NCBI GenBank assembly: GCA_050084515.1
Contig: CM114271.1
Coordinates: 39,060,001-39,124,000 of the forward strand
Reading direction: 5' to 3'
DNA from: Blasia pusilla
Lineage: Eukaryota
DNA: 64,000 nucleotides
A program made the position numbers and the translations under genes. Positions 1 to 64,000 of this stretch are shown in pieces (position 1 is the first letter of the stretch; the number at the start of each line of letters is the position of its first letter). The notes below the pieces were generated by a model that saw only the letters and a program-made list of their open reading frames with translations, did not search any database and was not told where the DNA came from.

Positions 1-1076
1 GATGGGAGAAGCGAGTGCGACGACTCCTATTGTTGATGTTCAGGAGGGGCATGTGTCGAGCACGTTGTTGGGGGAGGCCATAGTTGTGTACCGCACTCCT
101 TTATTTTCTGCTTCCGATGTTATGACGTTGGGGGGTACGCCCGCCGAGGCTTTTCGGCTGGCCGCTTCACTATGTGAGCGGAGTTGGAGTTCTGCATCAC
201 GTTGAGGTGATTTGAGGAGGAGGTGATGGACCTGCCCTTGGGGGGCGGATGCCGGGCCGTCCATGTCGATTCATGGGAGGGTGCGGCTGCTAGGATGGCG
301 GAGATGCCCGCTAGACCCGCGATAGAGCGTGCCATGGCTTCTCCTGGTGTTGTGTTGTTGGATAACCAAAGAGAGGTCTTCGTTGGTGAGTCCCGGAGGT
401 AGAGCTTTTAGTCGGTAGCGTCTTGTTGATTAGGGGGCAGCGTCATTGAGGATTGGGCTTGCGAGCCGATGTGGAGCGTTGTCCATTCGGATCGGACATC
501 CTTGGGTGGAGCAAGTACCACACAATATATCACCCGCCAGAGGAGTGGGTGGTGATTCACCCGGGATATCCTGAGATGAGTCCGTGAGTGCGCGCCAAAG
601 CGATAGTGGATCGATCAAGAGTCCCTCACGGCGTCTTGGTTGGTGGAGCGATATTGTACCCGGCGGGGTTTTCCTGGATTCTTGGGAGGAGTTCCCCTGA
701 GACCAGGATGGCGTCGGTGATGGGCGCCTTAGCTCATTACCCGTTCGATTCACAGTGCGATGATCGAGCAGCGGCCATGAGAGATAGCGACCTTAGCGAG
801 CATTTAGTAGTGCCATCACTTGGCCTAGTGATTTGATTGAGGACATGTCCATCTGAGGATACTCCGTTCTTGACATTTCTATGGAGAGAGTGTTATGGTA
901 TTGCATCATTCCGTGGAGAGAGGTCTGTGGGACTCGAGAGCTTCAACGATTGGCGGATGAGCACGAGGCGTGGAGCGGCGTTTGCACCAGGCGTGACCGA
1001 GGAACCGAGGTAGCGAGGGAAGTGCTGATGACACCCTTGGATACCACACCCATTGTGTGGTGTACCGGAGAGGGTA

Positions 1077-1975
1077 TTCGAGTGTTAGATCTCTTTGGAG
1101 GGATTAGCACCAGGTTAGCTTCTTTGTTTTGAGTGCGAGTACAACAATACTGTATGTGGAGAGTGATGATGTTGCGGCGTGTCTCACTACGACATGTGGC
1201 GCAATTATGCCTCGTTTTCCCGACTTATTATCTGCGCGTCAGCGATCTGAGTACGAGTTCCCCTCTTGAGGATATTTTGTTGTTGGGGGCGCAGGACTTA
1301 GAGCGGGTAGGGACCATTGATTTGGTCATTGCGGTTGGCCATGTCGGGGCCAATCGAGTGCTCGATGAGGACGGGTTGGTGACACTCGGTCAGTTGTTTT
1401 GGGAGATGTTGAGGGTCTTCGGGATTTGAGAGCACGGTCTCGTTCTCGGCCTACATTCTAGAGAATGTGCCGATCTTAGGAGACTCAGTCACGGGTGGTG
1501 AGTGCTCATCAGTGCGTGCTGGATCGGCCAAGTGTTCTTGGATGTGGCGAGTGTAGGTTCTAGAGCCCATCGCTCGCGTCTATGGTGGACCAACTTGGTG
1601 CCCCATGCGGTGTTATGGAGGGCGTATCGAGTGGAGCGCCCCTCCCATTTGTTAGTGGATTCCATTTTGGATCCAGGTTGTCGATCACGAGCGGTGAGGC
1701 ACGATGATCGACCACCGTTGACGTGGAGGTAGGTAGGTGCGGGCGGCCTTGCCCAGTTGTGAGTTTTCCGCTTCTGTGCATACAAGGAGGCCGGTCCTGG
1801 CTTGGTTTGGGATGACCAGGTTCAGCGGTTGGTGGAGCCAACGCCCGACGAGAGAGAGCGAGCAATGGGATTTCCCACAGGAGTGACGGCAGTACCATCA
1901 GTGTGAGAGGCATCACGACGCCATGTCTTGGGTCAGCGATGGACTGAAGCGCTTGACATGGATCCTCACTTGGGA
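1077..1975 (+). pseudogene. DNMT3-like C5 cytosine methyltransferase domain in pol of copy 1 (frameshifted)
   Basis: Motif I IRVLDLFGGIST; IDLVIA followed by a frameshifted WPC; ENV codons at ~1462; DVASVGSRAHRSRLWWTN; ERAMGFP. Confidence 0.88.
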
Positions 1976-2379
1976 GTGGTGAGCGGCGTCATATGAGATC
2001 GCTGATCGAGATCACGGGTTGCATTGGTGAGCCCCATGCCCTACCGAGAGACGGTGGAGGCAAATGGGTGGGGGCGAGACCGAGGAGATCTACGCACCAC
2101 GGGAGATCGGAGAGACACCCTTGGACTTCTTGGGATGTTTTGCAGTGCACGCAAGGAGATGATAGCCACAACATTGAGCGTGGTTTGCAACGACGTGGAG
2201 GAGATCGAGTTTGCATTTGGTCAGAGGAGAGCGAGAGTGTTGTTGTTCGAGATGGGGTTGCACCATAGCAACCACCGATACCAGCGCGGAGAGTCCTACC
2301 GTAGTCACGATGGAGACTTGGGAGATATGGGCCCTAAGTTGTGGAGGAGGAGAGCGGCGCCGAATACATCGGTTCCTTA

Positions 2380-5330
2380 GTAATTATAGGAGCGCTGCGT
2401 TTAGCATGGAGGATTTGGGCATTTGAAGGGACCAGGGATCCGCATTGAGTTGTCGAGTGATATGCCGATCTTCCGCGACCCTACAAGTGATATGGAGAGG
2501 GCTCGATTGAGTAGGAGCGCACTTGGTGAGCGAGACTAGTGGAGATGTCGCATGGGGAGTATGCATTTGCCCCGTCATGCCCGCCAAGAAGGATGTGCAT
2601 GGCAACCGGCTGGGCGGATAGGCGGATGTGTGGGGATTACCAACCTATCAATCGGCAGACAAAGTCCGATAGGTATGCCATGCCCACCCGTGAGAGATCT
2701 TTCGATTGGTCACGCAAAGGTCTTGATTCATTGGATTGCGAGCCGGATACCATCCGCCTATCGATTGGAGGACAAGCGAAAAGCGGCATTTTGGGGCATC
2801 AATCCTCACGGGAAGGATTGTTTGTACCCGTGGCGGTTCTTACCATTTGGGTTAAAGAACGCCCTGGCTGAGTTTCGAGAGGGTCATGGATAGGATCTTG
2901 GGTGGTCCGGATTTTGCTAGGTGTTATATTGATGACATCGTAGTCTTTAGCGCCACGGTTGAGGAGCATGAGCAACATCTAGAGGAGGTGTTTCGACAAT
3001 TGCAATTACATGGGCTGAAGCTACATCCGGCAAGTGCAAGTTCTTCTACGACCAGATTGAGTACTTGGGTCATACGATATACCCATGGGGCCTTGGTGTT
3101 TAGTAGACGAAGGTAGAGGCTATCTCACGCATTCCACGCCCTCAGATGTGAGCCGTGTTCGCGCATTCATCGGATTGGCGAACTTCTATCGGCGATCGTC
3201 AAGGGATTGATTCGATTGCGAAGCGGCAGTGACCTTGCTGACCAAGGTGGATCACGAGTGGCACAGGGGATGAGCAGGGAGCGAGCATTTCGATTGCTCA
3301 GGACGAGTTGGCGTCGCACCCATCTTGAGGAGACCGTCGGGCGTCCTTTCGATTGCACGATTGGAGGATGTTGGGGCTTGGAGCGGTGCTCACCCAAAGC
3401 ATGATCATGAGGGTAGAGAGTTCGTGGTGGCTTACGCTAGCCGCTCAAACAACGGCAGGTAGAGGCGGCTCGTATGAGGGTGAGTGCTTGGCTGTGGTGT
3501 GGGCTGTCGCGCATTTCAGGTGTTACTTATTCGGCAACCCCTTTACCATCATCACTGATCATCAACCACTGAAGTGGTTGATGGAGTCCGACAAGCTTAC
3601 AGGGAAGCTTGCAAGATGGGCTCTGTTGTTGCAAGAGTATGATTTTCAGGTGGTACATAGACCTGGGACGCTCAACCATGATGCAAATGGGTTGAGTCGT
3701 AACCCATGCCCGAGTCAGCGAGATGTGACTGGTGCTCGATGGCATGGAGAGAGTGATGAGGAGTCGGTGCCAGGATGGCACGCGTCAGCCTATTTAGGCA
3801 TGTTGGATATGGAGAGCTAGAGTGTGGAGACTTCGATGGCGAGGTCTAGTGGAGAGTCCTTGGATCCCGAGGCCAGTGAGGACACGACAAGTAGTCAAGA
3901 TATTCATGATGATGGAGTAGTCTTAGAGTACCTTCGTACTGGCAGCCTTGCGAGCACCATGGATGCTAGAGAGCGGGATCGGATCCTACAGCGGGCCAGA
4001 CGGTTCCGTTGGGAGGGGACACATGTTTTGAGGGTTTGGAAAGATGGCAGAGTACGCGTAGTGCCGCATCCTTCGCAGAGAGCACGACTAGTGGAACATG
4101 CCCACGAGGAGTTGGGTCACTTTGGGGTGAAGCGGACGTATAGCTTGCTCGATTCGTATTGGTGGCGAGGCATGCAGACCGGCGTTCAGCAGATTTGTTG
4201 CCAGGTGCATGGTGTGTGATCGGGTCCGAGCATCGTTCAATGCTCCGACTCCGATTGCATCCATTACCGATCATGGGCTTAGGGTATAGATGGATTTTGG
4301 ATTTTGCAGACCTTTGCCCTTGACGGAGCGTCCACGTCGTTATGTGTTGGTGATGGTGAGCACTTCTCGAAGTGGATCGAAGTTGGTTGCATTGCACGAC
4401 AAAGCGAGTGAGGGAGTAGCTTATGCCTTCCTTGACAGAGTCGAGTCATTATGACGCCGGCCGGTGGTGTTGACGGACCAGGGTACCGAAGCGTGGTGAG
4501 TTCCAGGCCTTGTGTGATGGCGTTGATCGACCACCGCGACGACGACCGCGAGATCATCCCGAGGCGGATGGACTAGCGGAGAGTTGTCTGAGCGGTGAAG
4601 AGGATTTACGCAAGTATGGCTTGCAGAGAGGTCACCTAGAGATTGGGACCTCCGGTTGCCATGGTTGGCAATGGAATACAGATTCAGTGGCGGGCATCCT
4701 GGCGTCTTTTTCACCGTACTTGCTACTTTATGGCGAGAGCCATATTTACCTGCGGCCATTCGTCGAGATCTTTGGTGAGTCTTTGGACCTTGATGACCCG
4801 GATGTATGGGTGCGAGCATGTTCTCGGAGGGCTGAGTTATTTCGAGAGTGATGCCCATGGCGTTCGAGAACTTGGCGATTGCACAAAGATCGGGATACGT
4901 TGAGGTATGCGACTATTCGGGTGGTGGTTATCGACCAACTATCCCGGAGGTTTGATTAGGGAGATTATGTCTACTTGCAGCGAAGAAGACACCCACGCGT
5001 TGGATATGATGCAGGCGCACTATCCCCGAGAGTGCGTGACATTTTGCCATCGGGTGTTCTCTTGCTGGAGGGACGCGATGGTATGGTATGGAAGGACCAT
5101 GTGCATAATTGTGCGCCATGTCACCTTCCTAACATTGATGGTACAGTAGATCCGAGCTTAGCAATAGTTCCTATAGGCTTGCGTTGTATGTTGTGTGGTT
5201 CGCGTGGTGTGGGCGATGCTAGTTGTGATGGGTGTTCGAGAGGATGGCATATGGCATGTTTGACGCCACCTCTCACTAGGGTTCCTCGTGGGGCGATGGA
5301 TGTGTCCCAGGATGTACATAGAGTAGGTAG
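2380..5330 (+). pseudogene. pol: RT-RNase H-integrase-PHD part of pol, copy 1, many frameshifts
   Basis: ORFs 2539-2893, 2886-3116 (YIDD), 3353-3820 (RNase H), 3824-4219 (integrase Zn finger), 4510-4851, 4975-5445 (PHD). Confidence 0.92.
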
Positions 5331-5501
5331 TTCTACATTCCGACTTGTGTCTGTGACATGGATGACAAGAAGGCGACTAACGATGGGGCCACATGAGCAC
5401 CCGGCCTTCTTGCTCTTAGCATCCGAGAGATGTATGTCATGGTAGGTAGGGATAGATGGCTATCTGGAGTTAGAGGGACCTAACCACCAACTAGGGGGGC
5501 G

Positions 5502-6272
5502 ATTGGAGATATTTTGGTACTTCTTGTCTCGTTGTTTGGATGCCATGAGTTAGCATGGGATCATGCGTGTTTGTGTGTGTGTTCGGTGACAGCGATGTAT
5601 GTTGTGTAGCGATGTGTATGCGCACGACAACTATCACGTCTTTTAGGATAGATCGGTGAGATCTAATAGAGCGCCTTCGTGAGTAATGGAGGACACGCTC
5701 AATAGGTTGCGAATGACCTGCTGAGGCCCCGGGAAACCTGAGAGAGCCGGTTTCCCCTTCGCTTCGGCTCATTTGGAGCCATATTAAGGAACTTACTATT
5801 TTAGGTAAGTATCATTTTGAGTATATGATCGACTTTCTATTTTTGGTAAGTGGCCCTTGACCTCCTATATCAGGTCAAGAGCCAAGGAGGTGACTTGGGA
5901 GAATAGGTTACCATGGAGAGAGCTTGGGAGAGGGGAGGGGTATACCTCAAGGAGAGAGAGCTTGAGAGCTCATTCTCTCTTTATTGAACCTCTTGGCATG
6001 AGGCGGCGGAGCTATGGTACCTTGCCTTGTGAGTGTAACCCAAGCCTCTCATTAGGAGAGTGGGTTTGGTTTGACATGAGAGAGAGTGCACACCTTTGAG
6101 AGCTATGGTGTGAGATGGTGGAGAGAAAGATTGGATCCTACTTTATTGGAGATATTTTGGTACTTCTTGTCTCGTTGTTTGGATGCCATGAGTTAGCATA
6201 GGATCATGCGTGTTTGTGTGTGTGTTCGGTGACAACGATGTATGTTGTGTAGCGATGTGTATGCGCACGACA
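5502..6272 (+). repeat. Terminal repeats of copy 1: B1 5502-5629, A2 5632-6144, B2 6145-6272; purine tract 5493-5501
   Basis: The 128 bp B unit (attggagatattttggtac...gcgcacgaca) occurs twice around a ~513 bp A unit. A matches 14111-14626 (reverse complement), the solo starting at 54351, and 58110-58625. Confidence 0.93.
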
Positions 6273-7465
6273 CGTGCCGGACGTTTGTAGGGGCTTACAT
6301 CTTGCCCACATCCGGCCCGTGGAGGCCTAGAGCCCGCGTCAAACCCGCATCTCGCACACCTGTCGCTCCTTTGCCCGTATCCTTCATCTGAGCTCACAAA
6401 GGAACAAATCCGTCGCATGGTACTCAAAGAGGGCGTAGGTGGATACAATATAACAAAGACTGATGGGCAACCCGTACCATGCACGAGAGTGAAGGGAGTA
6501 ATCATGTTAGACACAAAATATTTTTCTTGCTGCTCGTAGAGGAGGAAACATTTTCTTGTTGCCCGATTGCTACATTTCAAGCAGGGAAGTGTTTGCAAAT
6601 CAAGTAGGAACTCTCCAATAATAATATAGATTTGCAAGTTACTTCAATTAGAGGTGATGTTGTGCAATTAAAAAGATATATTTATTTACGCCAATATTTT
6701 AAACTAATTTATCATCATTTTGTCAATGTACAATCTTTATTTTGGTATCCACCATGGAAATACTTCCCATTATAAAGGAGATTTGGATGGATTCGAAATG
6801 AGTAAAATGAAATGAGATTTGAAAGAGTCTATGAAATAGCTGAAATGGATATAAAGTAAAAAATTGAGCTTAAGATTTGTTGAAATGTAGGGATTATATA
6901 TGTGCCACGGCCAGCGAAGTGGCTAGAGCATTCATGGTTGCATTCAACTTTAATAAACCACTTAGCAAACATTCATGCAATTTGCTATCGCATTTTTATG
7001 ATTGCATTTAGCAACTTCATGTGCAAATCTAAATTTCTCTTGATCAACATTTCTCCAAGTAAGGATGCTCGTTTTAGCAAAAAAAATGGTGTGACATTTA
7101 TATTATTATTGAAAACCCCATGTATGCAATAAAACAAAAAAATTAGAATAGAAGACAAAATAGTAACACGAGTACAATTTTGTATGTTATTTCACGTTTG
7201 ATGTTTTGGAAAATGAATTTGAATAGGGTAATAATTTAATCAATTAATTAACAATTTAATTAGTGGATGTTATGTTGGTGAGACCAATGAAGTAAAAATT
7301 AAACATTATGTAAAATTTTATGGAAAAATGGAGATAATGGGGAATAAGATATTATTTAAACTTTAATTGAAGAGTGGAATCTTATTATTCTTTTAAAATA
7401 GTGGAAGTTATATTTGAGTTTTGGAATACCACATATTCCTAAGTTATTTAAAGAAAATTTCCTGT

Positions 7466-7692
7466 TCAAGTACGAGATAACTAGTGTCTACTACTTTTTG
7501 GGCATACTTTTTGACTTTCGCATCCTTCTCAAGCACGAGATAACTAGTGTACTAATTGATTGGGCATACTTTTTGATTATCGCATCCTTCTCAAGCTGCA
7601 GATAACTAGTGTCTACTAATTGATTGGACATATTTTTTTATCATCACATCCTTCTCAAGCACCATATAATTAGTGTCTACTAATTGATTGAG
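7466..7692. repeat. Tandem repeat, ~63 bp unit, ~3.5 copies; a ~96 bp-period duplication follows at ~7795-7955
   Basis: Recurring caagcacgagataactagtgtctactaattgattgggcatacttttt...catccttct; cccatgcacactaaatgaaaagatgtttgaagaatt occurs twice. Confidence 0.8.
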
Positions 7693-8753
7693 CTTAATTT
7701 TTTAACTATACTAATTCTATCTTCATACTAGTTCTATCTCCAATTACTAGTAAGATGCCCATGTGATCTTGCTACACTCATGTTCCATAATAATTCTAAC
7801 CACAATCATTAGTAAAATACCCATGCACACTAAATGAAAAGATGTTTGAAGAATTAATATTAATATTTAACCTTGGTCTTCCATAATGACTCTAACCCCA
7901 GTCACTAGTAAAATGCCCATGCACACTAAATGAAAAGATGTTTGAAGAATTTATACAAATGTATAAATCAATGGCATTACATACAAATTCAAAAAAATTT
8001 GAAACATGAAACATTTTTTTCGGCTAAATGTGGGGAGAGTCTTGTCATTGGTGATAAGACTCTCCCAATATCAAGAAGGCGCACTCCTATAATAATTTAA
8101 GGAGATGGTGAGATAAGCCAACAGACTCAACCAGTTGACACTTTGCAAGAACTTCGACCATAAGCGAAGAGTTAACGATTGACGAGAGCGACGTTTGCCG
8201 CTCCGTCCATTTGCATTATAAACATGATACCCGTAACTTCGAATTGAGCTGTGAAAAAGCTAGTATTCCATATGTACGATGGATTTTGTGAACTGTTGGT
8301 TTTCTAGTTTCAAGACGGACGCATATCGTCGATGCTATACGTCTTGAAATCCTACGGAAATTTGACCTCAGTCGACTCGACATACGTCCCCTCGAATTCT
8401 TGCGTTTCTACGTTTCTACATGACTGGAACTTGCGGCTACACCAGGGTCATATCTATTCTAGACTTCGGAAAGTGTCTTTCAAATTTGACGTGAAAGATA
8501 TTTTTCTGCGCTTCCCGGCGTCCAGGGCAATTTGAACATTCCCTTCCAGTCAAGATCATGGAAGAGATGCTCCGAAAACAATGTGAATCGTTTGAAACTC
8601 CTTAATGTCCACACTCATCTTGATGAACATGACCTCTGTCTAAGAAACCCTAATGATTTCGATACCGAATCGTGACATTTTCGAAGCTGGGCACAGCAGA
8701 AGATTACCCTCCTCGGCGCCACACTATGAACACACACAATTCCTAGCTGGGTT

Positions 8754-10244
8754 TTACCTGTTTTTTAGCATGTACTTGCGGATTTGGAAGGCTCCGCCAA
8801 TCAAGGATGAGACCAGGAATAAAGTGTTGAAGCGCCGAGTGAAGTCCGCCACTCGACCCACCGATATCATTACAATTCGCTTGATGCTGTTTCTCTTGTT
8901 GTGCGCATTCTTCACGAAATCTGGGGACGCCTCCTGCACTCGTCTGGCAAAAATCAGGCAGGACACTCGGCTCTTCAATCCCCGCTTCACCGACTGCTTC
9001 TTCTTGGTCGGCATCCGCTGAATCCTTGTATCAACTTCCTTTAACCACTTCTGCTTCTTTGACGGTGACTGTCTATTGAGCCATTTCACGTTCAGAGAGG
9101 CGTGGCACACTTCAACCTTGGGGGGGCGGGGTATGTCGTTCGAAGTCGACTCTCCAGCGTCCACCATCGCCTTCGTCATCTCGGAAGATTGGATGGCGAA
9201 AATGTTGTCGATGTAGCTGAGAAGCGTGTGTTCTCTAACTGCATCCAGGGAAGAAATTCCGAAGTGAAAGTTGAGATGATGCTCTGTAGTCCACTTGTTC
9301 ACATCGGCGTACTCGAGCTTGCTGGTTTCCGTATCCAGGAGGACCATGTGGCCGGCGAAAGCGTAGCCGTAGCCGGATTGGTGAGAGAGAGCTAGAGCTA
9401 GCGCGCGATGGATAACGAACTGGAGAATTCCTGGGACCCATCTCAGCGCCTGAGATCCTAATGCCACCAGAGGGATACGTTCCGGCTTGATCCGGAGGCG
9501 AGGGTTCACTAACTGGACGACTAGGAAGATGACTCTGGAAATGGATACCAAATCACCCCACGGACCTGCATGAAGGCCATACCACACGGAGTAGAGAGTG
9601 TAGCATAGCGGCATTAATTTCGGCACAATGTCGTTGCGAGAAACGATGTGCACAAAATGGTGCTTGTAGCGCTTATTGATGTAGCGAGCCAGCTCCGTGT
9701 CTGCGAAAAATGGACACCCGAACGTGTAGCATTGAATTTGTTCATGGCACCACTTTCCTGTGGCCTCCAGTAGTCTCAGAGCCAGTAGGGACGCCACCGC
9801 GCCCCCTAATGAATGCCCTGTCAGGACAATTCTCTCGCCCCTGACCAGAAGCCTGCGAAAATATTCGAGTGGGATAGTCTTCGCCCGGTCTAGAAATCCT
9901 GCGTGCGCGGATCCAACTGCAAGGCTCATGGTTCTGTGAAGCAAGTGCAGATCTGTAAGAGCATCGTACACATCTACAGTCCCTCGGCACGCAACTACTA
10001 TGTGCCCTCCCGTCAAACTTCGCACTGTGATCATGGGTTGCTTACAGGTGGAGAAGCCGTTCGCTTGAAGCTCTTCTCCGCACACAAATTCATATTTAGC
10101 CGAAGGAGGCAGTCCATACTCTCTATCCATCACCCTCAGCTCTTCGGCTGGATCCTTTGCGTAGCTCACTGCTGAGAGTATGACCGCATCTACCAGCCAA
10201 AGAGGATGCCGATCATCCCGGATGATCTTTCCTAACGATGCCAT
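8754..10244 (-). CDS. Class 3 lipase (alpha/beta hydrolase) family protein; extra 5' exons possible
   Basis: Intact 496 aa ORF with VACRGT, AHAGFL, nucleophile elbow TGHSLGG, YTFGCP and NDIVP. GT donor-like sites upstream (~10317, ~10902) hint at unresolved 5' exons. Confidence 0.88.
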   Translation of the reverse strand: MASLGKIIRDDRHPLWLVDAVILSAVSYAKDPAEELRVMDREYGLPPSAKYEFVCGEELQANGFSTCKQPMITVRSLTGGHIVVACRGTVDVYDALTDLHLLHRTMSLAVGSAHAGFLDRAKTIPLEYFRRLLVRGERIVLTGHSLGGAVASLLALRLLEATGKWCHEQIQCYTFGCPFFADTELARYINKRYKHHFVHIVSRNDIVPKLMPLCYTLYSVWYGLHAGPWGDLVSISRVIFLVVQLVNPRLRIKPERIPLVALGSQALRWVPGILQFVIHRALALALSHQSGYGYAFAGHMVLLDTETSKLEYADVNKWTTEHHLNFHFGISSLDAVREHTLLSYIDNIFAIQSSEMTKAMVDAGESTSNDIPRPPKVEVCHASLNVKWLNRQSPSKKQKWLKEVDTRIQRMPTKKKQSVKRGLKSRVSCLIFARRVQEASPDFVKNAHNKRNSIKRIVMISVGRVADFTRRFNTLFLVSSLIGGAFQIRKYMLKNR

Positions 10245-12021: not shown

Positions 12022-14942
12022 GGGGGAAGAGAAAGAGAGTCACGATCGGGAAAGCGATCTGCACAATATACGGCGTACGCCGTGCGACTCCATTCGAGCC
12101 CGCGACCCTATCTCACGCGACTTTCCTCATAGATGTCGGCCGTCGTTCTGTCAACACGTTGTAGCAGCAGCCGTCGATGTCACCTGGATCTGCCAACACA
12201 TGTTTCTCATGGCTGACTGCTACGATAGTCTCTTACTATAATTAGGAGACTAACTCGGGATGTTTTGAACTGGATTCCCCGAATCCCGAACCGTCTGCCC
12301 ATCGCGACACCACGATTCCCTGAGTTTTTGTTGTACCACGCGTCCTTTCTCAATTCGGAATCCAAACACTGTAAAAAATGCGTCAACACTCATCCTCGCT
12401 TACCATTCGAGATCGTAGGATGCAGTTCCTCACGGGGCCAGTAAGGCTTCCCACGTGTCCCATAAAATAAATAAAATAAGATTATCATGATGGCTCACTA
12501 AACATTTAATACGCCACGTGGATACTACCTCAACGGTGAATTAGAACCCATGCCCACATGACAAATGTCCGTCGATGAGATTACGGACGGGCCTTGTGTA
12601 AGTGGTCACTGAGATATCGATCAGGGAGAGGTCGGGACTAGCAAGTGAGGCTACGGCAGGACCACAACCACGGAAATATTGAACCTCTTACTTATTTAAA
12701 CTTAGTTAGTATTGAAAAAGTTTATCTATACTATAGGGGGGGTTACTTCTTATTTGGGAAGTAACCCCTCCTCACACTATAATGTGTGGAGGAGTGGAGT
12801 GAAACAAGTCTCGTTTCCTTCATAGGTTCTGTTTTGAATCTTTGGCTCTTGCAGTCGATTGCATTAATGGTAGAGCAAGTTCCTGAAGATTTATGAGTGA
12901 CGCCTAAAATGAGGGAATGTGCGGAAAGGGTCAAAAGGTTTGTTGTTCTCTTGGGCTTTTCCATAGGGACGTGCTTGGCTTCGGATTCTCAAGGCTCGGA
13001 AAATCCCACAATTTGTGACCCTGACGATGGATTCTTACTGGGATTTATAATTGCAATCATTTCACAAGATTTGGTTGACGTTTCATTTTTGAAACGTCCT
13101 CTTACCGACAAAATTCTGGACTTTGGAGTAACAAAATCAAATTTACGACTAGACTTATGTGATCGGTCGTAACATGAGAGGCAATAGCGTACATCCAATG
13201 AAAGAATACCGCATGTGGGAATGCTATTGTCCGGATTCTCTTCTGATGTGGTTCTTGTCACAAGAAAAAACAAACCATGTGCGGGGCCCTAGAGATCGAC
13301 CGATCCATCACAGGTTTTGTTGATGTGCCTTCCGCGTACGTTTGGGCGAGAGGGTGCCTGTGCTATTGTGGCGCGGTTCTTCTTTCCGCATTTTTGACTT
13401 ACAGCAGAACCTAATTTCAGCCGTCGTAGTAATTTCTTTTTGCATATTCTTCAACGTTTCCAGGTCTCTCATTCAGCTTAGCTAAGCTTTCTTTCCTCGA
13501 CGTCAATCGGGGGAAGAAGCCAAAATTCCGTGAGTGGATGGGTGGGTGACCGTGGGTCATTACACTGGTCACATCGTCATTTTGGAGCACTCGAACTCTT
13601 GGTAGGTTGTGCCTTCCTGATGAGCGTTCTAGAACAGCGATCCGTGCATCGTATTGCAATCCAAGTAGAAAATTTTCCCGGTTGGAGTTAGTCTAGAGAT
13701 GTGAAGGTCATTTATCTTCAATCAGGATCATTTTGTGAGAAATATTTCTCTGCACTTCCCCTAATTACGCAGATTTGCTCTACTCCATGTTGAGCAAAGG
13801 TCAATGATCTTGCTGTGCATCTCCTCTGCTGAGGAATGAAATCTGAGCATATGCAAGCTTCCCCGTTGTCAAAATCCAAAGGGTGGAGATTAGGGCGATC
13901 TTCCATTTTGATGACTTGCCTTAATTTTGGCTCTCGAGGATTCTGTAAACTCTTAGCTGTGGAATTTGAGTCCTATGAGGAGTGTCATGCGCATACACAT
14001 CGCTATACAACATACATCGCTATCACTGAACACACACACAAACACGCACGATCCCATGCTAACTCATGGCATCCAAACAACGAGACAAGAAGTACCAAAA
14101 TATCTCAAATTAAAGTAAGATCCAATCTCTCTCTACACAATCTCACACCATAGCTCTCAAAGGTGTGCACTCTCTCTCATGTCAAACCAAACCCACTCTC
14201 CTAATGAGAGGCTTGGGTTACACTCACAAGGCAAGGGACCATAGCTCCGCCGCCTCATGCCAAGAGGTTCAATAAAGAGAGAATGAGCTCTCAAGCTCTC
14301 TCTCCTTGGGATATATACCCCTCCCCTCTCCCAAGCTCTCTCCATGGTAACCTATTCTCCCAAGTCACCTCTTTGGCTCTTGATCTGATGTAGGAGGTCA
14401 AGGGCCACTTACCAAAAATAGAAAGTTGATCTTATACTCAAAATGGCACTTACTTAAAATAGTAAGTTCTTCAAAATGGCTCCAAATGAGCCAAAACGAA
14501 GGGAAAACCCGCTCTCTCAGGTTTCGCGGGGCCTCAGCAGGTCATCCTCGACCTCCTAGGCCTGTCCTCCACTACTCTTGAAGACGCTCTACTAGATCTC
14601 ACCGATCTATCCTAAAGGACGTGACAACTATTGTGCGCATATACATCGCTACACAACATACATCGCTATCACTGAACACATATACAAACACGCACGATCC
14701 CATGCTAACTCATGGCATCCAAATAACGAGACAAGAAGTACCAAAATATATCCAATCGCCCCCTAGCTGGTGGTTAGGTCCCTCTAACTCCAAATAGCCA
14801 TCTATCCCTACCTACCATGACATACATCTCTCGGACGCTAAGAGCAAGAAGGTCGGGTGCTCATGTGGCCACATCGTTAGTCGCCTTCCTGTCATCCATG
14901 TCAGAGAAAAAATTCGGGATCGAAACCTACCTAGTATCTCCT

Positions 14943-15764
14943 CTATGTACATCTGGGACACATCCATCGTCCCCGAGGAACCCTAGTGAGAGGTGGCGTC
15001 AGACATGCCATATGCCAACCTCTCGAACAACCATCACAGACTAGCATCGTGACCGCACCACAGGCATAACCACACAACAAACAACGCAAGCCTGCAAGAA
15101 CTACTGCTAAGCTCGGATCCAGTGTACTATCAATGTTAGGAAGGTGACATGGTGCACAATTACGCACATGGTCCTTCCATACCATACCATCGCGTCCCTC
15201 CAGCAAGAGAACATCGGATGGCAAAACGTCACGCACTCTCAGGATAGTGCGCCCTGCAGTCACATCCAACATCGTCGGTGCCGTCTGCTGCAAATAGACA
15301 TAATCTCCCTGATGAAACCTCTGGATAGTTGGTCGATAACCACCACCCCGAATAGTCGCATACCTCAACGTATCCCGATGTTGCGCAATCGCCAAGTTCT
15401 CGAACGCCATGGGCATCACTCTCTGAAATAACTCAGCCCTCTGAGAACATGATCGCACCCATATATCTGGGTCATCAAGGTCCAACACCTCATCAGCATC
15501 TCGACGAATGGCCGCAGGTAAATCTGGCTCTCGGCCATAAAGTAGCAAGTACGGTGAAAAAGACGGTAAGGATGCCTGCCTGCTGAATCTGTTTCCCATC
15601 GCCAACCATGGCAACAAGAGGTCCCAATCTCCTAGGTGACCTCTCTGCAAGCCATACTTGCGTAAACCCCTCTTCACCGTTTGCACAACTCTCTCCGCTA
15701 ATCCATCCGCCTCGGGATGATCTCGCGAAGTCGTGCGGTGGTCGATCAACGCCTGATCACTCAA
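14943..15764 (-). pseudogene. pol: Integrase C-terminal part with C4HC3 PHD finger
   Basis: HPEADGLAERVVQTVK and SPYLLLYGRE, then CLLCG...CDGCSRGWHMACLTPPLTRVPRGRWMCPRC. Confidence 0.93.
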
Positions 15765-15794
15765 GGCTTGGAACTCAACATGAAACTCGGTACC

Positions 15795-18013
15795 CTAATC
15801 TGTCAACACCTTAGCCGGTGCGCCATAATGACTTAGCACTCTGTCAAGGAAGGCATAAGCTACTCCCTCACTCGCTTTGTCAGGAAATGCAACCAACTCG
15901 ATCCACTTCAAGAATTGCTCGACCATCACCAACACATAACGACTGTGACGCTCCGTCAAAGGCAAAGGTCCTGCAAAATCCAAACTCCATCTATACCCTA
16001 AGCCCATGATCGGTAATGGATGCAACTGTGGAGTCGGAGCATTGAACGATGCTCGGACCCGATCACACACCATGCACCTGGCAACAAACTGTTGAACGTC
16101 AATCTGCATGCCTTGCCACCAATACTGAATCTGGAGCAAGCTATACGTCCGCTTCACCCCAAAGTGACCGAACTCCTCGTGGGCATACTGCACTAGTCGT
16201 GCTCTCTGCGAAGGATGCGGCACTACGCGTACTCTGCCAGCCTCCCAAACCCTCAAAACATGTGTCCCCTCCCAACGGAACCGTCTGGCCCACTGTAGGA
16301 TCCAATCCCGTTCTCTAGCATCCACGGTGCTCGCAACGCTGCCCGTACGAAGGTACTCCAAGACTACTCCATCATCATGAATATCTCTACCACTTGTTGT
16401 CTCCTCACTGGCCTCGGGATCCAAGGACTCTCCACTAGACCTCGCCATCAAAGTCTCCACACTCTGGCTCGCCATAACCAACATGCCTAAATAGGCTGAC
16501 GCGTGCCATCCTGGCACCGACTCCTCATCACTCTCTCCATGCCATCGAGCTCCAGTCGCATCTCGCTGACTCGAGCATGGGTTACTACTCAACCCATCTG
16601 CATCTTGGTTGAGCGTCCCAGGTCTATATACCACCTGAAAATCATACTCCTGCAACAACAGAGCCCATCTTGCAAGCTTCCCTGTAAGCTTGTCGGACTC
16701 CATCAACCACTTCAGTGGTTGATGATTAGTGATGATGGTAAAGGGATTTCCGAATAAGTAACACCTGAAATGCGCGATAGCCCACATCGCAGCCAAGCAC
16801 TCACCCTCATACGAGCTGTACTTCGCCTCTGCAGCGTTGTTCGAGCGTCTAGCGTAAGCCACCATGAACTCTCTATCCTCTCATCATGCTGGGTGAGCAC
16901 CGCTCCAAGCCCCAACATGCTCCAATCTGTGTGCAACTGGAAAGGACGCCCCCTGATCGGTCTCCTCAAGATGGGCGCAGACGTCAACCTGTCCTTGAGC
17001 AACTGAAATGCTCGCTCCTGCTCATCCCCCCAGTGCCACTCGTGATCCACCTTGGTCAGCAAGGTCAGTGGCTTTACAATCGAAGTGAATCCCTTGACGT
17101 ATCGCCGATAGAAGTTCGCCAATCCCATGAATGCGCGAACACGGCTCACATCTGTAGGGCGTGGAATGCGTGAGATAGCCTCTACCTTTGTTTGATGAAC
17201 ACCAAGGCCCCTTGGGTATATCGTATAACCCAAGTACTCAATCTGGTCGTAGAAGAACTTGCACTTGCCTGGATGTAGCTTCAGCCCATGTAATTGCAAT
17301 CGTCGAAACACCTCCTCTAGATGTTGCTCATGCTCCTCAACCGTGGCGCTAAAGACTACGATGTCATCAATATAACACCTAGCAAAATCCAGACTAGCCA
17401 AGATCCTATCCATGACCCTCTGAAACTCATCCGGGGCGTTCTTTAACCCAAATGGTAAGAACCGCCACTGGTACAGACAATCCTTCCTGTGAGGATCGAT
17501 GCCCCAAAATGCCGACTTCTGCCTGTCCTCCAATCTGATAGGCAGCTGATGGTATCCGGCTCATAAATCAATGAATCAAGACCTTTGCGTGATCAATCGC
17601 ATCAAAGATCTCTCAGGGGTGGGCATGGCATACCTGTTGGACTTCGTCTGCCGATTGATAGGTCGGTAATCCCCACACATCCGCCTATCCGTCCAGTTGC
17701 CATGCACATCCTTCTTGGCGGGCATGATAGTGGCAGATGCATATTCCCCATGCGACATCTCCACTAGTCCTGCTCTGACCAAGTCTTGGCTACTACTCTG
17801 AATCAAAGCCCTCTCCATATCACTGTACCTGTAGGGTCGTCGAAAGATCGGCGTATCACTCGACAATTCAATGCGGATCCCTGGTCCCTTCAGCGTACCC
17901 AAATCCTCCATGCTAAACGCAAAGCAGCTCCTATAATTACTAAGGAACTGATGTATTCGGCGCCGCTCTCCTCCTGTCAACTTAGGGCCCATATCTGGCT
18001 CCCAAGTCTCCAT
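15795..18013 (-). pseudogene. pol: RT, RNase H and integrase N-terminal/core region of copy 2
   Basis: RMCGDYRPIN, LPFGLKNAP, CYIDDIVV, FQLHTDWS, YEGECLA, HEEFGHFG...CMVC, WSLDFAGP. Confidence 0.95.
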
Positions 18014-18329
18014 CGTGACTACGGTAGGACTCTCCGGCGTGGGTATCGGTGGTTGCTATGGTGCAACCCCGTCTCGAACAACAACACTCGGCCGCTCTCC
18101 TGCAACCAACTGCAAACTCTAATCTCCTCCACGTGCAGTGCCCGAAACCACGCTCAATATTGTGGCTATCATCTCCTTGCGTACCTGCAAAACATCCCAA
18201 GAAGTCCACGGGTGTCTCTCCCGATCTCCTCTGGTCTCGCCGCCAGCCACTGCCTCCACCGTCTTGGTAGGCATAGGGCTCACCAACGCAACCATTGTGA
18301 TCTGTCGCGATCTCATACGACGTTGCTTA

Positions 18330-18969
18330 GCCACTCCCAAGCTGAGGATCCATGTCAAGCAGTTCAGGTCCATCGCCTGACCCAAGACATGGCGTCGTGA
18401 TGCCTCTAACACTGACGGTACTGCCGTCACTCCTGTGGGAAATCCCATCGCTCGCTCTCTCTCATCGGCGTTGGGCTCCACCAACCGCTGAACCTGGTCA
18501 TCCCAAACCAAGCCAGGACCGGCCTCCTTGTATGCATAGGAAGCAGGAAAACTCACAAACGTGGGCAAGGCTGCCCTCGGCCTACCTATCATGTTGACCA
18601 CAATCAACGGTGGTCGATCATCGTGCCTCACTGCCTGTGATCGGCGACCTGGATCCATAATGGAATCCACTAACAAATGGGAGGGGTGCTCCACTCTCGC
18701 ATACGCCCTCCGTAACACCGCATGGGGCACCAAGTTGGTCCACCATAGACGCGGGCGATGGGCTCTAGAACCTACACTCGCCGCATCTAAGAACATTGCT
18801 TGGCCGATCCAGGTACGCACCTGATGAGCACTCGTCACCACCCGTGACCTAGAGTCTCCTAAGATCGGCATATTCTCCAAAATGTAGGCTGGAGAACGAG
18901 ACTGGTGCTCCTGCAACTGCCGTAAGACCCTCAACATCTCCCAAAACAACCTGAACCGAGTGTCAGCCA
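18330..18969 (-). pseudogene. C-terminal half of the DNMT3-like methyltransferase (motifs VI, VIII, IX, X)
   Basis: LFWEMLRVL, YILENM, DAASVGSRAHRPRLWWTNL, ERERAMGFPTGVT, RRHVLGQAMD, all in ORF 18119-19021. Confidence 0.92.
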
Positions 18970-19544: not shown

Positions 19545-22500
19545 ATGGTTGTTTTCTATAGTGGAATTAATTGGTACTTCCAATTGAAGAGAGATGTAGG
19601 CAAAATTGCAATTCTAACCTTGGTACTAACAAGCATGTTTCATATTGTTTACACGGAAGAAATCCCAAGTCTAGGTCCCAAAAGGCAGATTCCAAGACGT
19701 TTGAGTAGCGAGGGAGCAGGATCTTCAATCCCTTCAAAGAAACACCACACTCGACAACGTTGTCTAGAGGAGATTGTGGATGAATCAACTGATAGATCGA
19801 GAGATTATTCAGATGAGCTACATGAATCAGATGGTGAGTTTGATGTGACAATGGAGAAGGAATCCTCTGAGTCTCCATTAGAGAACCCACCCACTATGGA
19901 TAAATCACCAACCATAGTGCCATCACCACATTATTCCAAGAAGCGAGCTAAATTGAATAGACAAAAAGTGATGCTCCGATCTTGTATTAATCTTCATTAA
20001 GTGAAAGTGTTTGATAGTATGCTATTGAGATTTATGTTTTGTAGAGTGATAGAATGCTTTATGCAACATCACTTATTTCATTTTGTGATACCTAACACCT
20101 TATGATATGAGCAGGAGGTGCCACCTGCGGTTGGTGATGTTTCCTACCGCTTGCCACAAGCCAACCAATGGCCCTTACCTCCTTTTACAGGGTTTCCACA
20201 ATGGCCTGTCTTGCCAGGTAGGTAACCAATTGCATTTTGTCTTTGAATGGTAATGATGTTTAGTGTATTTTAGATATGAAAAACTTATAACAATCTATAT
20301 GGTTCCATGTAATAGAAGTTGAATTACATTTTTTCTAATTTTGTAATGTATTTGATTGGCAAGAGGCCTTGGATCCTACTATCCATCTAATCCATACTAT
20401 GGGATGATGCCCACTCATGGCATCTCTAATCCATCACAAGGGCCCCCCACAGCAGGAAAGAGTGAAAAGTCTCTTGGACGTTATCCTAGAGGTCCTACAC
20501 CTCCCACTGGTAAGTCTCTTTTACCACAGATGCTACAACTTGAACTAGAAAACATGCAATTCTACATTTTGTTATAATTGGTATGTCCATAAGTCGATTG
20601 GGGTCCATAAAATTTTTCTCTCATAATTGGTGACGATCTTACAGCAAGCTCTAAAGCTCGACACCATCGGCGGGAAAGCCCTTAAGGAATGGAAGACAAG
20701 TACAAAGTCTCTTATCGAGAGGGGCTTAAAACCAAGAGTTGATGTTACGTCATCAGGTGAAATTGTATCTGGATGTGTTGGAAAAACAATATGGCATGAT
20801 GAATTGAAGGTTTGTGTCCTTCGCTGTTTGGACCTTAGTACACCTCATGTGGCTAAGCAATCTGAGTTTGACATCCGCACTGTAAGAATGGAGATGGATG
20901 AAGGATGGGAGTATGTTGGGAATGAGCTTAGTGAACGATTTTTTAAATCAACCTTGGCAAATATCATGAAGAGAGATAGAGCACGCTTGAAGAAACTTTT
21001 ATATTCTTCAAGGCTTAGTAAGGAATGCCCAACACCTCCAGATGTGCTTCCGGAAACTTGGGAAGCCCTCAAAATTTATTGGCTCTCACCAGAGGGAAAG
21101 GAAAAAGCAGAAAGGATGAAGATGAATAGAGGAAAGGTTGAGCACCCAAATAGAATGGGTCGAACCGGTCACAAAGGAGTCAAACTCTCCCTGGTATGTA
21201 ATTAGTTATGTTACTATGGATTTTATTCTAAATATTCAATGAAGTTTGATGCATATGCAATGTAAATGGTGAACTCCTCTCTAACATTATCTCTTCTTTA
21301 GTAGATGGATCCTTCAAGTATAGTGTTAGAGCGACATCATGCTGGTCATGAGATTGATTCATGTATATGTAGTGATTGGTTATAAACTTTTAGAAAAAAG
21401 AAAGAGATGAAAGCCCCTCATTACATGACTTGGGAGAATCACTAGGGACAGGTGAGGTTGGACCCAGTCTGGCGACTGCCGGCACCAAGGTAAATTATTT
21501 TCAGAGATCCAATATGTGTTCTAAGTTTTAATTGATTTGTCAAACTCTCCATTTGATCTCTTAACTTCATCTACACGAGTGTATCTTGTTTTAACTCCAT
21601 CACAAAGCCACTAAGCTTTCTTTGATGAAACATTTGTTGTTGCATAGGGGTCTGATTCTACTTTGACACATCGCTTCGACAATGTGGAGAAGGAGGCAGA
21701 GTCTACAAAGAGTGAGCTCAAAGCTATAAGGGAGACCTTGAATCTGATTCAAGAAATGGTTTTCAAGTTCACAAGCGAAGCATCCAAACATAATCCAACT
21801 TCCTCTACTCCTCCCTTGAATGTACATGTTACGGAGGGCCCAACAACAGAAGTTATGGATGTAGAGGTCATCATGCAAATTTGTTTCCAACACCTCAAAC
21901 ACTTCCATCCAAATCTGCTTATGTGACTTCCAATGTAGAACATCATATTGCTACTGGGGAGATATTTCTATCCTTGCAACATGAAGTGAAGGCACATGAG
22001 CCGATCTCGGGGTGAGATGCACAAGTTCAATTGATAGAGCATGATATAAAACGAGACATCCAACCAAAGCAAGTCCTTCTAAAGAAGATAAAGGAATCTT
22101 GTATGGAGAAGAAAGAGAAGATAGTTGTAAGTAGGCCTTTCTTGGAATGTTGTTCCTTTTTTGTCTTCTTGCTCCAATTGTTTTCCATGTTGATATCACG
22201 TTCACTTTAGAGATAGCTCATGTCTTGACCATGTGCATGTATTAATTGTAGACAAGACAAGCAGATATGATATTTTCTTCCACCATTCCTAAAAATGGTT
22301 GGAGCATTTTAAAGGTAATCTATATGGTTTATATGGTGATGTACTTAATTTCCTGAATGTCTATTAACCATCACTATGCCTATTTATCCAAAGTATATAT
22401 TGAGCTTTACTATCGTGTTTGTTGTTGTACTTTCATCAGCTTGTAGTAGGTGACTACGTCTTGATGAAGCAAAAAAAGAACACTCGCCAACTAGTGGGAG

Positions 22501-22721
22501 AAGGATTGGTATCGGGTCTTGCAAGTCAAGATAAGATCCATGGGAAGGAGATCCCATTTGGATGTGTGAGACTTGATGTGAAGGTTATTCTCAACGGTGA
22601 AGCAGAGTTACTGTATCCAAATCATGATGATGACCCTTCGCAATTGCTATTGAAGGAATCAGTTGGGTGTCAGATTTTATGGCCAGAGAGATTGCTTAAG
22701 AAAGACTCTCCATTAGAGTAG
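19545..22721 (+). pseudogene. CACTA (En/Spm) accessory TnpA/Ptta-like gene, intron-containing and degenerate
   Basis: 20627-21205 PPDVLPETWEALKIYWLSPEGKEKAERMKMNRGK...GRTGH resembles the plant transposase Ptta/En/Spm domain. 22419-22721 VGEGLV...IHGKEIPFGCVRLDV...ILWP resembles the Tnp1/En/Spm C-terminal domain. Confidence 0.75.
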
Positions 22722-23542
22722 GTTGTGATAGACTCTTAAGAGAATTAGAAACATCTATTTTTTGATGTCAATATAGATGTTTGTTGGAGACACAGAGTTT
22801 GTAGATTTGTTTACAGCAAAATAGAAATGTAATGCCACTATCAAGTGGAAACTTACATTCTTTTGTTGAATGAGGAGATCCTAAATTTGTTGGGCAATTG
22901 GCTATATTTTCAGACTCAAAGTTTAAGCCTTGCCAATTGGATGCATTCTTAAAGTATGTCCTCATTTGAGTTTTAGTAATAACATGCAAACGGATTAGCA
23001 TCTTATGTTTGGTAATCATCTTGGTGTGGATTCTTGGACATTTTATCTATTCAGTTCTTAGTAATACAATGAAGTCCAGTTCTCAGTAATACAAGTCCAC
23101 AAAAGTGGATTTCGCCACCTCGATGGGTAATGTACATGACACGTGTATGAAAATGATGGGATAAACCCAATCTTCAGAGACTAGATTTAGTGCACATTCT
23201 CAAATTTGATAATAAAAAGAATGCAATTGGTCCACATATCAACATCATACGAGCTTTTAATATATTCAATGACTAGATATAGTGAAATATAGGATGACGT
23301 GGACATGAGCCATGTCATACTCGTGATAATTCTATGTCACATAGTAAGGGTGATAAGGCAACTTAACATGTCCTAAAAGACTACACAAAACCATTCTAGT
23401 CAATTGCCATGTCATCAAGCCACCACGAAGTCCTTGCGACTAGATTTCTATATGACTCGTCCTTTGCAACTAGGTACTAAACTAGTTGCAACAGTTGTAT
23501 ACCGTACACATGCACTAAAAATAGTTGTATATTTTAGTGGCA

Positions 23543-43800: not shown

Positions 43801-43976
43801 TACGATTATGCCGGTGTCGTAACTGCTTGAGTGCGCACCATCGCACTATCCGACTCATGCTCTGGCTGGAGTCTGACCACCAACTCTTGTCGAGTCATGT
43901 ACTACGTGGATGATACGCCCCCAACAGAGGTGTGTATCGGAAAGGAAAAATGCTCGATGTTGCCTTTTTGTAACCC

Positions 43977-45118
43977 TGTAATGTCTAAGTGTTTCTTATT
44001 TACAGTCAATTGTAGAGTTCGATCCCCAAGAGGATCATTGTTGGATGAAAAGAGAGTATAAAGTGATGATTATGTTGTAAAAATGTAATTGATTATGTAA
44101 TTCAAATGTAGTATTCTAGGAACATCTTCCGATCCTTTTTAGTACCTATGTTTCCTTCTTCAATTCTCTCGTGTGGAGTTTAAAGTACGCTCAGGCAATT
44201 TGTTCTCTCGACATCTCGGAACCTCACAGAGACCTCAAGAATAAAGTTGGCTTCTCTTACTTTCGGAACTCAATCCGTCGGGGCAGGTTACTCTCTGTCA
44301 AACAGATTTCATACAACTTTATGTTGATTTTTCCATTGATAAGAAAGGTTCGCCTTATTCACTCTTCACTCGGCAGACCCGAAAAGAATATTCAGACATA
44401 AGCATCGCACATCAAAATGAATGAATGAATGCTTTACTACTCTATCAAGAATTGGAAGACTTCAAAGTATATACAAGCTCGAGAGGGTACAACTCTCTTG
44501 CTCGGACCATTCCTACAGCATAAGGACTTCATGAGCGAATGATGATAATAGCTTTTGTCTAGTTTCTTAAATATTCTCGAGAATAGGAGCGTTTCTATGA
44601 TCCGAAGCGTTCTTGATGAAGTTGGTGTCTCTTCAATATCTGTAACTACCTAGATCTATGGTTCTCTTAGCTTTTCCTACGATCCCTATGAATCATGGTA
44701 CAAAATCGTTTCTAACTACCAATTTGATACAAAGGGTCGCGCCCTTTCCTAGTCTAATTGTTTAAACTATGTGTCGGTTCGAATCACAATCATGCTGAGC
44801 TTCGCTGCGCTAAATTTCCGGAGGATGAAGTTCTTCATTCTTCTTCGTCTTCGTCTTCGTGCTTCGTTCAAGAGCGAAGTACCTCGTATACAGAGCTTCG
44901 TTGAGCTTCGCGTTGATCCTTTATACTTCGTTACAGCTTTTGATTCTCCTCTAAGGCAAATCCTTGAACTTCCATCTTTCTGCCTTGTCTTAGGAGCTTG
45001 GTGATTCACTTATTCTTCTTCATAATAATAAATAATCATAATCAAAATCATAATATACAAGAGTCTTCGTTGAATAAAAAGATATATTCTTCAAGATTAC
45101 AAAATTGTGGGTATCACA
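43977..45118. mobile_element. Solo LTR of an unrelated conventional LTR retrotransposon, 5 bp TSD AACCC
   Basis: TGT...ACA ends; AACCC at 43972-43976 and 45119-45123. Removing it restores the protease frame GKAACLPLGLQKGNIEHF. Confidence 0.88.
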
Positions 45119-48593: not shown

Positions 48594-48623
48594 GGGGCGT
48601 TCGCCTACCCCCTTCCTCATGTT

Positions 48624-63995: not shown

Positions 63996-64000
63996 GCTTG

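Follow-up and report, generated by a model that had tools for sequence, protein, structure and literature searches.

Split Direct Repeats on a DDE-Integrase Retrotransposon of Blasia pusilla: Possible Integration of a Gypsy-DNMT3 Element as a Circular Permutation

Introduction

A textbook retrotransposon of the long terminal repeat (LTR) type has two equal LTRs, and its outer ends are both the products of reverse transcription and the substrates of integrase. A stretch of 64,000 nucleotides (nt) from Blasia pusilla (assembly GCA_050084515.1, contig CM114271.1, positions 39,060,001 to 39,124,000 of the forward strand; the whole stretch is referred to here as the window) raises the question of how an element that is not bounded by two such repeats can be copied and inserted. 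The window contains several copies of a Ty3/gypsy-type retrotransposon that encodes a DDE integrase, a DNMT3-like methyltransferase, and a PHD finger, and whose repeats are split: a repeat A stands alone at the 5′ end (A1), and the 3′ end reads B1-A2-B2. The reading that we prefer, tentatively and at a little under even confidence, is that this element belongs to the streptophyte Gypsy-DNMT3 group and is integrated as a circular permutation of a classical element.

Split direct repeats are described as the hallmark of the tyrosine-recombinase elements PAT, Ngaro, and VIPER (PMC4157794, PMC7192593). They have also been reported for an element with gypsy domains and DNMT3, KnitGypsy-Dnmt3 of Klebsormidium nitens, in which the repeats are arranged A-coding-B-A-B “as in a DIRS retrotransposon” (de Mendoza et al., 2018; PMC5890265, section 9 and the legend to Fig. 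4c), and a 2026 preprint names a group “streptophytes (Gypsy-DNMT3).” Self-priming of reverse transcription has been predicted for the Tcn1 clade of mosses and club-mosses, which is related to Tf1/sushi (Neumann et al.; PMC6317226).

Results

Repeat Layout of the Copies in the Window

We determined the repeat layout by comparing the window with itself and by blastn (Table 1). All three of the 3′ ends in the window read G-tract, B, A, B, and every coordinate that an initial annotation had given for the A1...B1-A2-B2 layout held. The 5′ end of copy 3 has A as its sole repeat: a GA-rich leader starts directly after A1, and blastn found no B in 58626–64000 and none upstream of this A1. The identity between B1 and B2 is 98.4% in copy 1 and 92.2% in copy 2, and the four aligned copies of A are 92.0%–98.1% identical.

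The 5′ end of copy 3 and the 3′ end of copy 2 can be assigned to a single element. Copy 3 (58110–63466, plus strand) and copy 2 (18969–13983, minus strand) share one break position within the DNMT gene: by blastn, positions 1–1371 of copy 1 align with 62015–63466 of copy 3 (84% identity), and positions 1377–5498 align with 18969–14759 of copy 2 (89% identity). A1 of copy 3 and A2 of copy 2 are identical at 506 of 516 positions (98.1%), and the remaining pairs of A are 92.0%–94.3% identical. Because A1 and A2 are so alike and the DNMT gene is interrupted at a common position in both halves, we read copies 3 and 2 as the putative halves of one element of about 10.3 kb that an inversion, breaking at 18969/18970 and 63466/63467, has separated; the 5′ end of that element would therefore consist of A without B, and its 3′ end of B-A-B. 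An assembly error at these positions would give the same picture. The two halves are oppositely oriented and lie 44.5 kb apart, about 8 nt is gone at the break, and a hairpin-forming stretch is found just past it (63467–63500). The possibility that the sequences beyond the breaks (18970 onward and 63467 onward) are the two ends of one transposon was rejected, as judged by eye only. Within the split element, B1 and B2 differ at 10 of 128 positions, mostly by G/A changes, and A1 and A2 differ at 10 of 516.

The window also contains a solo A+B flanked by a target-site duplication (TSD), which fits the earlier suggestion that recombination between A1 and A2 leaves such a product. A diverged, shortened relative (42371–47129) lacks the C-terminal part of DNMT, the reverse transcriptase (RT), and the integrase, yet it has a full G-tract-B′-A′-B′ end; it is probably non-autonomous. 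We found no 5′ end for this diverged family in the window, where an A′-like piece (52045–51840) is truncated and the predicted leader motif matched the A′ site only.

The Split Layout Is a Family-wide Trait

Relatives of the element were obtained by using a DNMT alignment to scan metagenome contigs, which yielded 80 loci; we mapped these by self-comparison and with segments from A, B, the leader, and the region preceding the G-tract. A 5′ end is present at 15 loci, which represent 14 distinct insertion sites, and each of these reads flank-TGTCATGACC... (A)-leader. None of the 14 distinct 5′ ends has B before or after A1, and the arrangement A-B-A-leader occurs at none of the 80 loci. The absence of B from the 5′ end had previously rested on a single A1, a caveat that these 14 sites lift. 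The arrangement named as counterevidence in the initial annotation, in which most copies have A+B at the 5′ end followed by a primer-binding site (PBS), is not what the metagenome relatives show.

At the 3′ end, the complete order G-tract-B-A-B is found at six distinct sites, and L002 and L074/L075 are cut after B1-A2. Complete A...B-A-B copies are present at L039, L062 (the same site as L058), and L073, and the domains of L062 are the same as those of the window element, rve and PHD included. In L028 (5883–6327) and L042 (5873–6317), a G-tract-B end on the minus strand directly adjoins a leader on the plus strand, no A intervening, which represents a rearranged pair of elements.

Full copies have TGTC...GACA ends, formed by the start of A and the end of B, and are flanked by 4-bp TSDs. 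Both flanks are available for eight elements. The two flanking sequences match at all four positions in four of these (L073, TCTC/TCTC; L062, CATA/CATA; L010, TACA/TACA; and the solo A+B in the window, TCAT/TCAT) and at three of four positions in the others (L039, AACA/AATA; L056, GGTA/AGTA; L040, CTTA/CCTA; and the split element in the window, CTCT/CTCC). The probability that all eight pairs would reach at least three of four matches by chance is about 4e-11, and chance is excluded as the source of the matches. The TSDs are retained in L010, L056, and L040, which have B alone at the 3′ end. We conclude that the whole A...B-A-B unit is inserted by a TSD-making reaction, that A and B are each duplicated in every cycle, that A1 and A2, like B1 and B2, resemble each other within one copy in the manner of LTRs, and that the split layout is a trait of the entire family.

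Coding Content

Judged by the usual features of Ty3/gypsy elements, the pol order, the HHCC/DDE integrase, the TG...CA ends, and the short TSD are all present, and two identical bounding LTRs are absent. The combination of split repeats with a gypsy HHCC/DDE integrase and TG...CA ends, as first annotated, is thus borne out by the domains and the TSDs. Using tblastn with the open reading frames (ORFs) of copies 2 and 3, we found that the internal part of copy 1 contains the end of gag, a protease-like stretch, DNMT, RT, RNase H, integrase, and PHD. The translated gag has two CCHC knuckles. DNMT lies between the protease-like part and RT, and its motifs I, IV, and VI can be read in the translations. 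Copy 2 has intact-looking ORFs for the C-terminal part of DNMT, RT, RNase H, HHCC/DDE integrase, and PHD. The pol order in copy 2 and in L062 is RVT_1, RT_RNaseH, Integrase_H2C2, and rve, followed by a C-terminal PHD finger, which occupies the position of a chromodomain at the C terminus of the integrase.

The rve match of L062 scored 48.1 bits (cutoff 32.6). The PF00145 match of the same locus was weak (18.1 bits versus a cutoff of 22), and two fragments from the window gave no match to this family; for P0002, a homologue that is 65% identical to the DNMT part, all 29 PDB matches were DNMT3A, DNMT3B, or DNMT3C. No tyrosine recombinase (Phage_integrase, PF00589) was matched at E ≤ 0.01 in the 20 ORFs that were scanned. 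Named protein homologues (50%–68% identity) come from the liverworts Calypogeia, Marchantia, and Riccia and from Sphagnum mosses, and they include proteins named from Marchantia polymorpha.

Conserved Sites at the Repeat Boundaries

A polypurine block, GGACCTAACCACCARCTAGGGGGG(C/T)G, stands directly ahead of B1 in the window and at 19 metagenome loci, and B1 starts 0–2 nt past ...CTAGGGGGG(C/T)G in the same set; diverged forms of the block are found in the diverged window copy and in L080. This block is a candidate site for plus-strand priming.

The junction between B1 and A2, termed J, reads CACGACA-GC-TGTCA(C/T)G, and when the spacer is GC, GACAGCTGTC is a perfect palindrome. This palindrome is intact in L002, L006, and L070, and the other copies, including those in the window (spacers AC and GT), are one or two transitions away from it. 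J, or forms that differ from it by a few transitions, is present in the window family, the diverged window copy, the main metagenome lineage, L070/L071, and L080. The junction of copy 1 is a decayed form of the palindrome GACA-GC-TGTC, which is made up of the end of B, a 2-nt spacer, and the start of A.

As annotated initially, no TGG or tRNA-type PBS follows A1; a self-complement stands there instead (Table 1), and the 64-kb window contains no tRNA genes. In the metagenome lineage, a different 11-nt complementary pair, GTTCTTTGAGT / ACTCAAAGAAC, occupies the same places as the pair in the window. The spacing from the candidate self-primer to the leader site is 170–177 nt in both lineages, and the TATA box lies about 30–33 nt upstream of the site within A. 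The complementarity between this A-internal site, which is the presumed RNA start, and the start of the leader extends over 11–16 nt in the two lineages. Minimum-energy folding pairs the start of the leader with the first 9–11 nt of the putative RNA both in the window copy and in all four metagenome copies that have the two sites intact, and the same pairing is absent in six copies in which a site is mutated or deleted.

A ends exactly where the PBS-like site begins, and B begins right after the polypurine block, so the A2|B2 junction joins the last base before the PBS-like site to the first base after the polypurine tract. In this respect it looks like the LTR-LTR junction of a classical element whose repeat is B-GC-A. 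The A|B junction varies: it is one A short in copy 1, and in L073 it contains 17 extra nt and the CG that trails the G-tract. Such heterogeneity is as expected of a junction that is made anew.

Expression

Raw reads from three RNA runs, chosen because they carry the species label of the best-matching DNA runs, were mapped over positions 1–9000 of the window, and depth was measured in 300-nt bins. Sense-strand RNA covered copy 1 in all three runs, at a depth of 7–240 per bin, and in all three the depth fell from 57–71 (6001–6300) to 1.6–1.8 (6301–6600). Each run also contained reads that join 5444 to 5939 (4, 8, and 8 reads). The ends of this joint are non-canonical (GG..GG), and the G-tract, B1, and the part of A2 that lies upstream are missing from it; the joint is absent from the DNA contigs of run X2, and it could represent a deleted copy or a template switch. 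In run X2, the summed contig word depth over 5401–6300 was about 240,000–520,000 for A and B versus about 7,000–125,000 for the internal part; the difference hints that there are many solo or non-autonomous copies, though the measure is a poor one.

Other Features of the Window

A tandem satellite of about 180 bp occupies 32021–33955, where 11 copies are 61%–85% identical to the reference copy. A distant gypsy element is found at 49314–50941 (minus strand) and 48437–48595; its RT and integrase are 26%–34% identical to those of the element studied here, and beyond it lie tandem repeats of 75 nt and a purine tract. ORFs resembling the proteins of plant DNA transposons lie at 19545–25914 (plus strand) and 63597–63998 (minus strand). 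The latter, the sole one of these ORFs that was scanned, gave a weak match to DUF4216 (E = 0.0043) that is below the cutoff.

Table 1. Positions of the Element Copies, Their Repeats, and Putative Cis-Acting Sites in the Window
Feature	Position	Strand	Remarks
Copy 1, internal part	1–5501	+	Start cut by window edge; many frameshifts; blastn and tblastn
Copy 1, polypurine block GGACCTAACCACCAACTAGGGGGG + CG	5476–5501	+	Adjoins B1; includes G6 tract 5494–5499
Copy 1, B1	5502–5629	+	Self-comparison
Copy 1, junction J	5626–5635	+	GACA-AC-TATC; spacer AC 5630–5631
Copy 1, A2	5632–6145	+	Self-comparison
Copy 1, B2	6146–6272	+	Last letters GACA, then unrelated flank
Copy 2 (read as 3′ half of split element)	13983–18969	−	Flank CTCC
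Copy 2, polypurine block	14781–14759	−	Same block as copy 1, ahead of B1
Copy 2, B1	14756–14629	−	Followed by spacer GT
Copy 2, A2	14626–14111	−	
Copy 2, B2	14110–13983	−	
Diverged shortened relative	42371–47129	−	gag and protease-like part only, then G-tract, B1′, GT, A′, B2′
Diverged relative, B1′	about 43131–42998	−	Followed by spacer GT
Diverged relative, A′	42997–42507	−	
Diverged relative, B2′	42506–42371	−	
Solo A+B	54351–54990	+	Ends TGTC...GACA; TSD TCAT/TCAT
Copy 3 (read as 5′ half of split element), A1	58110–58625	+	Sole repeat at 5′ end; CTCT flank ahead
Copy 3, TATATAT in A1	58419–58425	+	
Copy 3, candidate self-primer CTCATTCTCTCTTTG in A1	58449–58463	+	
Copy 3, candidate PBS CAAAGAGAGAATGAG	58626–58640	+	First 15 nt past A1; perfect reverse complement of 58449–58463
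Copy 3, coding part	58641–63466	+	Leader, gag, protease-like stretch, N-terminal part of DNMT (motifs I, IV); broken at 63466

Discussion

A Possible Mode of Replication

The integrated form of the element reads A-leader-genes-polypurine block-B-GC-A-B. We suggest that self-primed strong-stop reverse transcription makes a repeat with the structure B-GC-A and that integrase uses the palindrome inside this repeat, a combination that we put forward as possible, with confidence clearly but not far below even. Reverse transcription would be of the ordinary strong-stop kind and self-primed as in Tf1: the RNA would start about 30 nt past the TATA box in A, its first 11–16 nt would pair with the first nucleotides after A1, and the plus strand would begin after the G-tract. 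Because self-priming would occur after A1 and the plus strand would start after the G-tract, the repeat made by RT would be B-GC-A. Integrase would then ignore the ends made by RT and act instead within the repeat, at the conserved palindrome GACA-GC-TGTC, where cuts just past the two CA dinucleotides would leave two CA-3′OH ends with self-complementary GC 5′ overhangs, which have the shape of processed integrase substrates. The inserted copy would be a classical element that has been circularly permuted and opened at the palindrome of its 5′ repeat. B2 would provide the right-hand end for integrase, and given its GT-rich composition and its restriction to the position behind A2, it may also serve to mark the site of 3′ polyadenylation. 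Ordinary strong-stop synthesis of a B-GC-A LTR, in which B1-A2 would be an internal site for integrase, fits better than the regeneration of ends from the B1-A2 junction that was first suggested for this locus, because the polypurine block and the PBS-like site lie exactly where the repeats are bounded.

The more general proposition, that the ends made by RT and the ends used by integrase are uncoupled, so that the DDE integrase cuts the palindrome in an intermediate with joined repeats (circle or tandem) and every insertion is permuted, is one that we regard as doubtful. The end of A and the start of B might be joined in a 2-LTR circle or by end-to-end template jumping into a tandem repeat. 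Speculatively, a tandem right-hand repeat produced by template jumping would give only the observed form, an A...B form, and a solo A-B.

A number of observations weigh against permutation by this route. Random opening of a 2-LTR circle predicts the arrangement A-B-GC-A-leader as often as the observed form, and because no such copy occurs among the 14 distinct 5′ ends, a plain circle model is insufficient. No circle, tandem repeat, or linear complementary DNA (cDNA) was observed. Eleven distinct sites end in G-tract-B followed by unrelated flank, without A2-B2 (L009, L010, L026, L038/L047, L048, L055, L056, L040/L041, L066, L077, and L030), versus eight with B-A(-B); these A...B-only copies may be B1 × B2 deletions or direct products of integration, and the model does not decide between the two. 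The divergence between B1 and B2 of copy 2 (7.8%) is greater than that between A1 and A2 (1.9%), and either the GT-rich B may mutate faster or the two copies of B may already have been unequal at insertion. The pairing between the A-internal site and the leader covaries between two lineages only, the changes within the metagenome lineage being decay rather than compensation, and the GA/CT-rich low complexity of the window family raises the probability of chance complementarity. Most of the RNA reads are just 90%–95% like copy 1, so the expressed copies belong to other subfamilies, and bins of 300 nt place neither an RNA start nor an RNA end.

We also considered the A...B-only copies as a replicating lineage of their own, and this was rejected. 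On a tree of the 1.5 kb preceding B1 (20 rows) they are interspersed with full copies (7 label changes versus a mean of 6.6 after shuffling), and therefore they do not replicate as such.

Alternative Explanations

The main rival is a PAT/Ngaro-like mode of copying combined with DDE integration, in which the RNA starts within A1, extends as far as the end of B2, and is copied over its whole length. A switch onto A2, for which the B1-A2 junction would be the template, would fill in the missing upstream stretch of A1, and integrase would insert the finished linear A...B-A-B cDNA via its true ends. The layout matches that of published split-direct-repeat elements (PMC4157794, PMC7192593), the inserted ends are the start of A and the end of B with TSDs, and RNA depth stops at the end of B2. 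This route yields the observed permutation only, which makes the absence of A-B-A-leader copies natural. Priming of the minus strand would, however, have to take place at the end of B2, where only host flank follows, and the route has no role for the G-tract ahead of B1 or for the complement at the boundary between A1 and the leader; that A ends exactly at the PBS-like site and B starts exactly after the polypurine block is left unexplained. On balance we consider end-to-end copying unlikely, though well worth keeping in view. A simpler account, in which the element is an ordinary one with A+B as its LTR, B1 is a partial duplication of the LTR, and the 5′ end has lost its B, draws on the solo A+B with its TSD, which resembles a normal solo LTR, and on the fact that the window contains a single 5′ end. 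It is already contradicted by the relatives, in which all 14 distinct 5′ ends read A and then leader, none with B, and the polypurine block lies ahead of B1 rather than A2 and the PBS-like site after A rather than B; the same layout is moreover in print for the K. nitens element (PMC5890265). We therefore regard it as very improbable.

A further candidate is a tyrosine-recombinase element of the DIRS order, or a chimera of such an element with gypsy that integrates as a circle, since PAT, Ngaro, and VIPER typically have split direct repeats. The scan of 20 ORFs gave no Phage_integrase match and did reveal rve and Integrase_H2C2, and 4-bp TSDs with TG...CA ends occur in all eight elements with both flanks, which leaves this explanation with almost no credence. 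No more can be given to an artefact, in which misassembly or nested insertions mimic B-A-B: one element in the window is split by an inversion that could be an assembly error, but the same order recurs at three sites in the window and, with its junctions conserved, on independent contigs from three or more other lineages.

Relation to Known Elements

We class the element as a new member, of bryophyte type, within the known Gypsy-DNMT3 kind, KnitGypsy-Dnmt3 being compared by its description. Like the window element, KnitGypsy-Dnmt3 has a gypsy pol with an inserted DNMT3-like domain and repeats in the order A-coding-B-A-B (PMC5890265), and the initial view that split repeats together with DNMT3 and PHD fall outside described families does not stand, as gypsy, DNMT3, and split repeats are united in that report. 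The two differ in that KnitGypsy-Dnmt3 has an alga as its host, whereas the named homologues of the window element are from liverworts and mosses; no K. nitens sequences were among the matches of two protein searches, and this comparison is of descriptions rather than sequences. TSDs, junction sequences, primer sites, and a mechanism are all absent from the main text of PMC5890265, supplements aside, and PHD is not mentioned there. Literature on split direct repeats with a Gypsy integrase, on Gypsy-Dnmt3, and on Marchantia likewise gave no mechanism, TSDs, or junctions for this layout, with supplements and subscription journals outside the scope. Our analysis adds the start of B after a polypurine block, the end of A at a candidate self-primer site, and the palindromic B1-A2 junction.

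The resemblance to PAT-like, Ngaro, and VIPER elements lies in the A1...B1-A2-B2 repeats and in the internal B1-A2 junction, which corresponds to the joined ends of the element. Those elements encode a tyrosine recombinase and are not known to make a TSD, whereas the integrase of the window element is of the HHCC/DDE type, its ends are TG...CA, its insertions have 4-bp TSDs, and its repeats are bounded by a polypurine block and a PBS-like site. Tf1/sushi elements and the Tcn1 chromoviruses of plants also lack a tRNA-type PBS, and the nucleotides after their 5′ repeat are complementary to the presumed RNA start, but they have two equal LTRs and a chromodomain in place of split repeats and a PHD finger. 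The 2-LTR circle junction of retroviruses is a palindromic CA-NN-TG site formed by joined ends, as in the window element; it forms only in dead-end circles, between whole LTRs, whereas the palindrome of the window element lies inside every repeat and is inherited. Pararetroviruses have unit-length circular genomes and make an RNA that is longer than one unit of the circular map, as the window element would.

Significance

This family breaks the rule of equal LTRs yet keeps a DDE integrase and TSDs, and its replication must therefore have a step that is outside the standard model. The layout was previously no more than a remark in a figure legend for one alga, and relatives are now found in liverworts and mosses. 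Marchantia polymorpha is a transformable model plant, and the palindrome, the polypurine block, and the self-primer pair are concrete sites to mutate. An element that has its own DNMT3 and PHD finger also bears on how transposons deal with the chromatin of their host. If the ends made by RT and the ends used by integrase are indeed uncoupled, a retrotransposon with a DDE integrase would here be integrating by way of an intermediate that contains the junction. The element would then represent a convergent counterpart of DIRS/PAT and would connect LTR elements with circular genomes of the pararetrovirus-like type.

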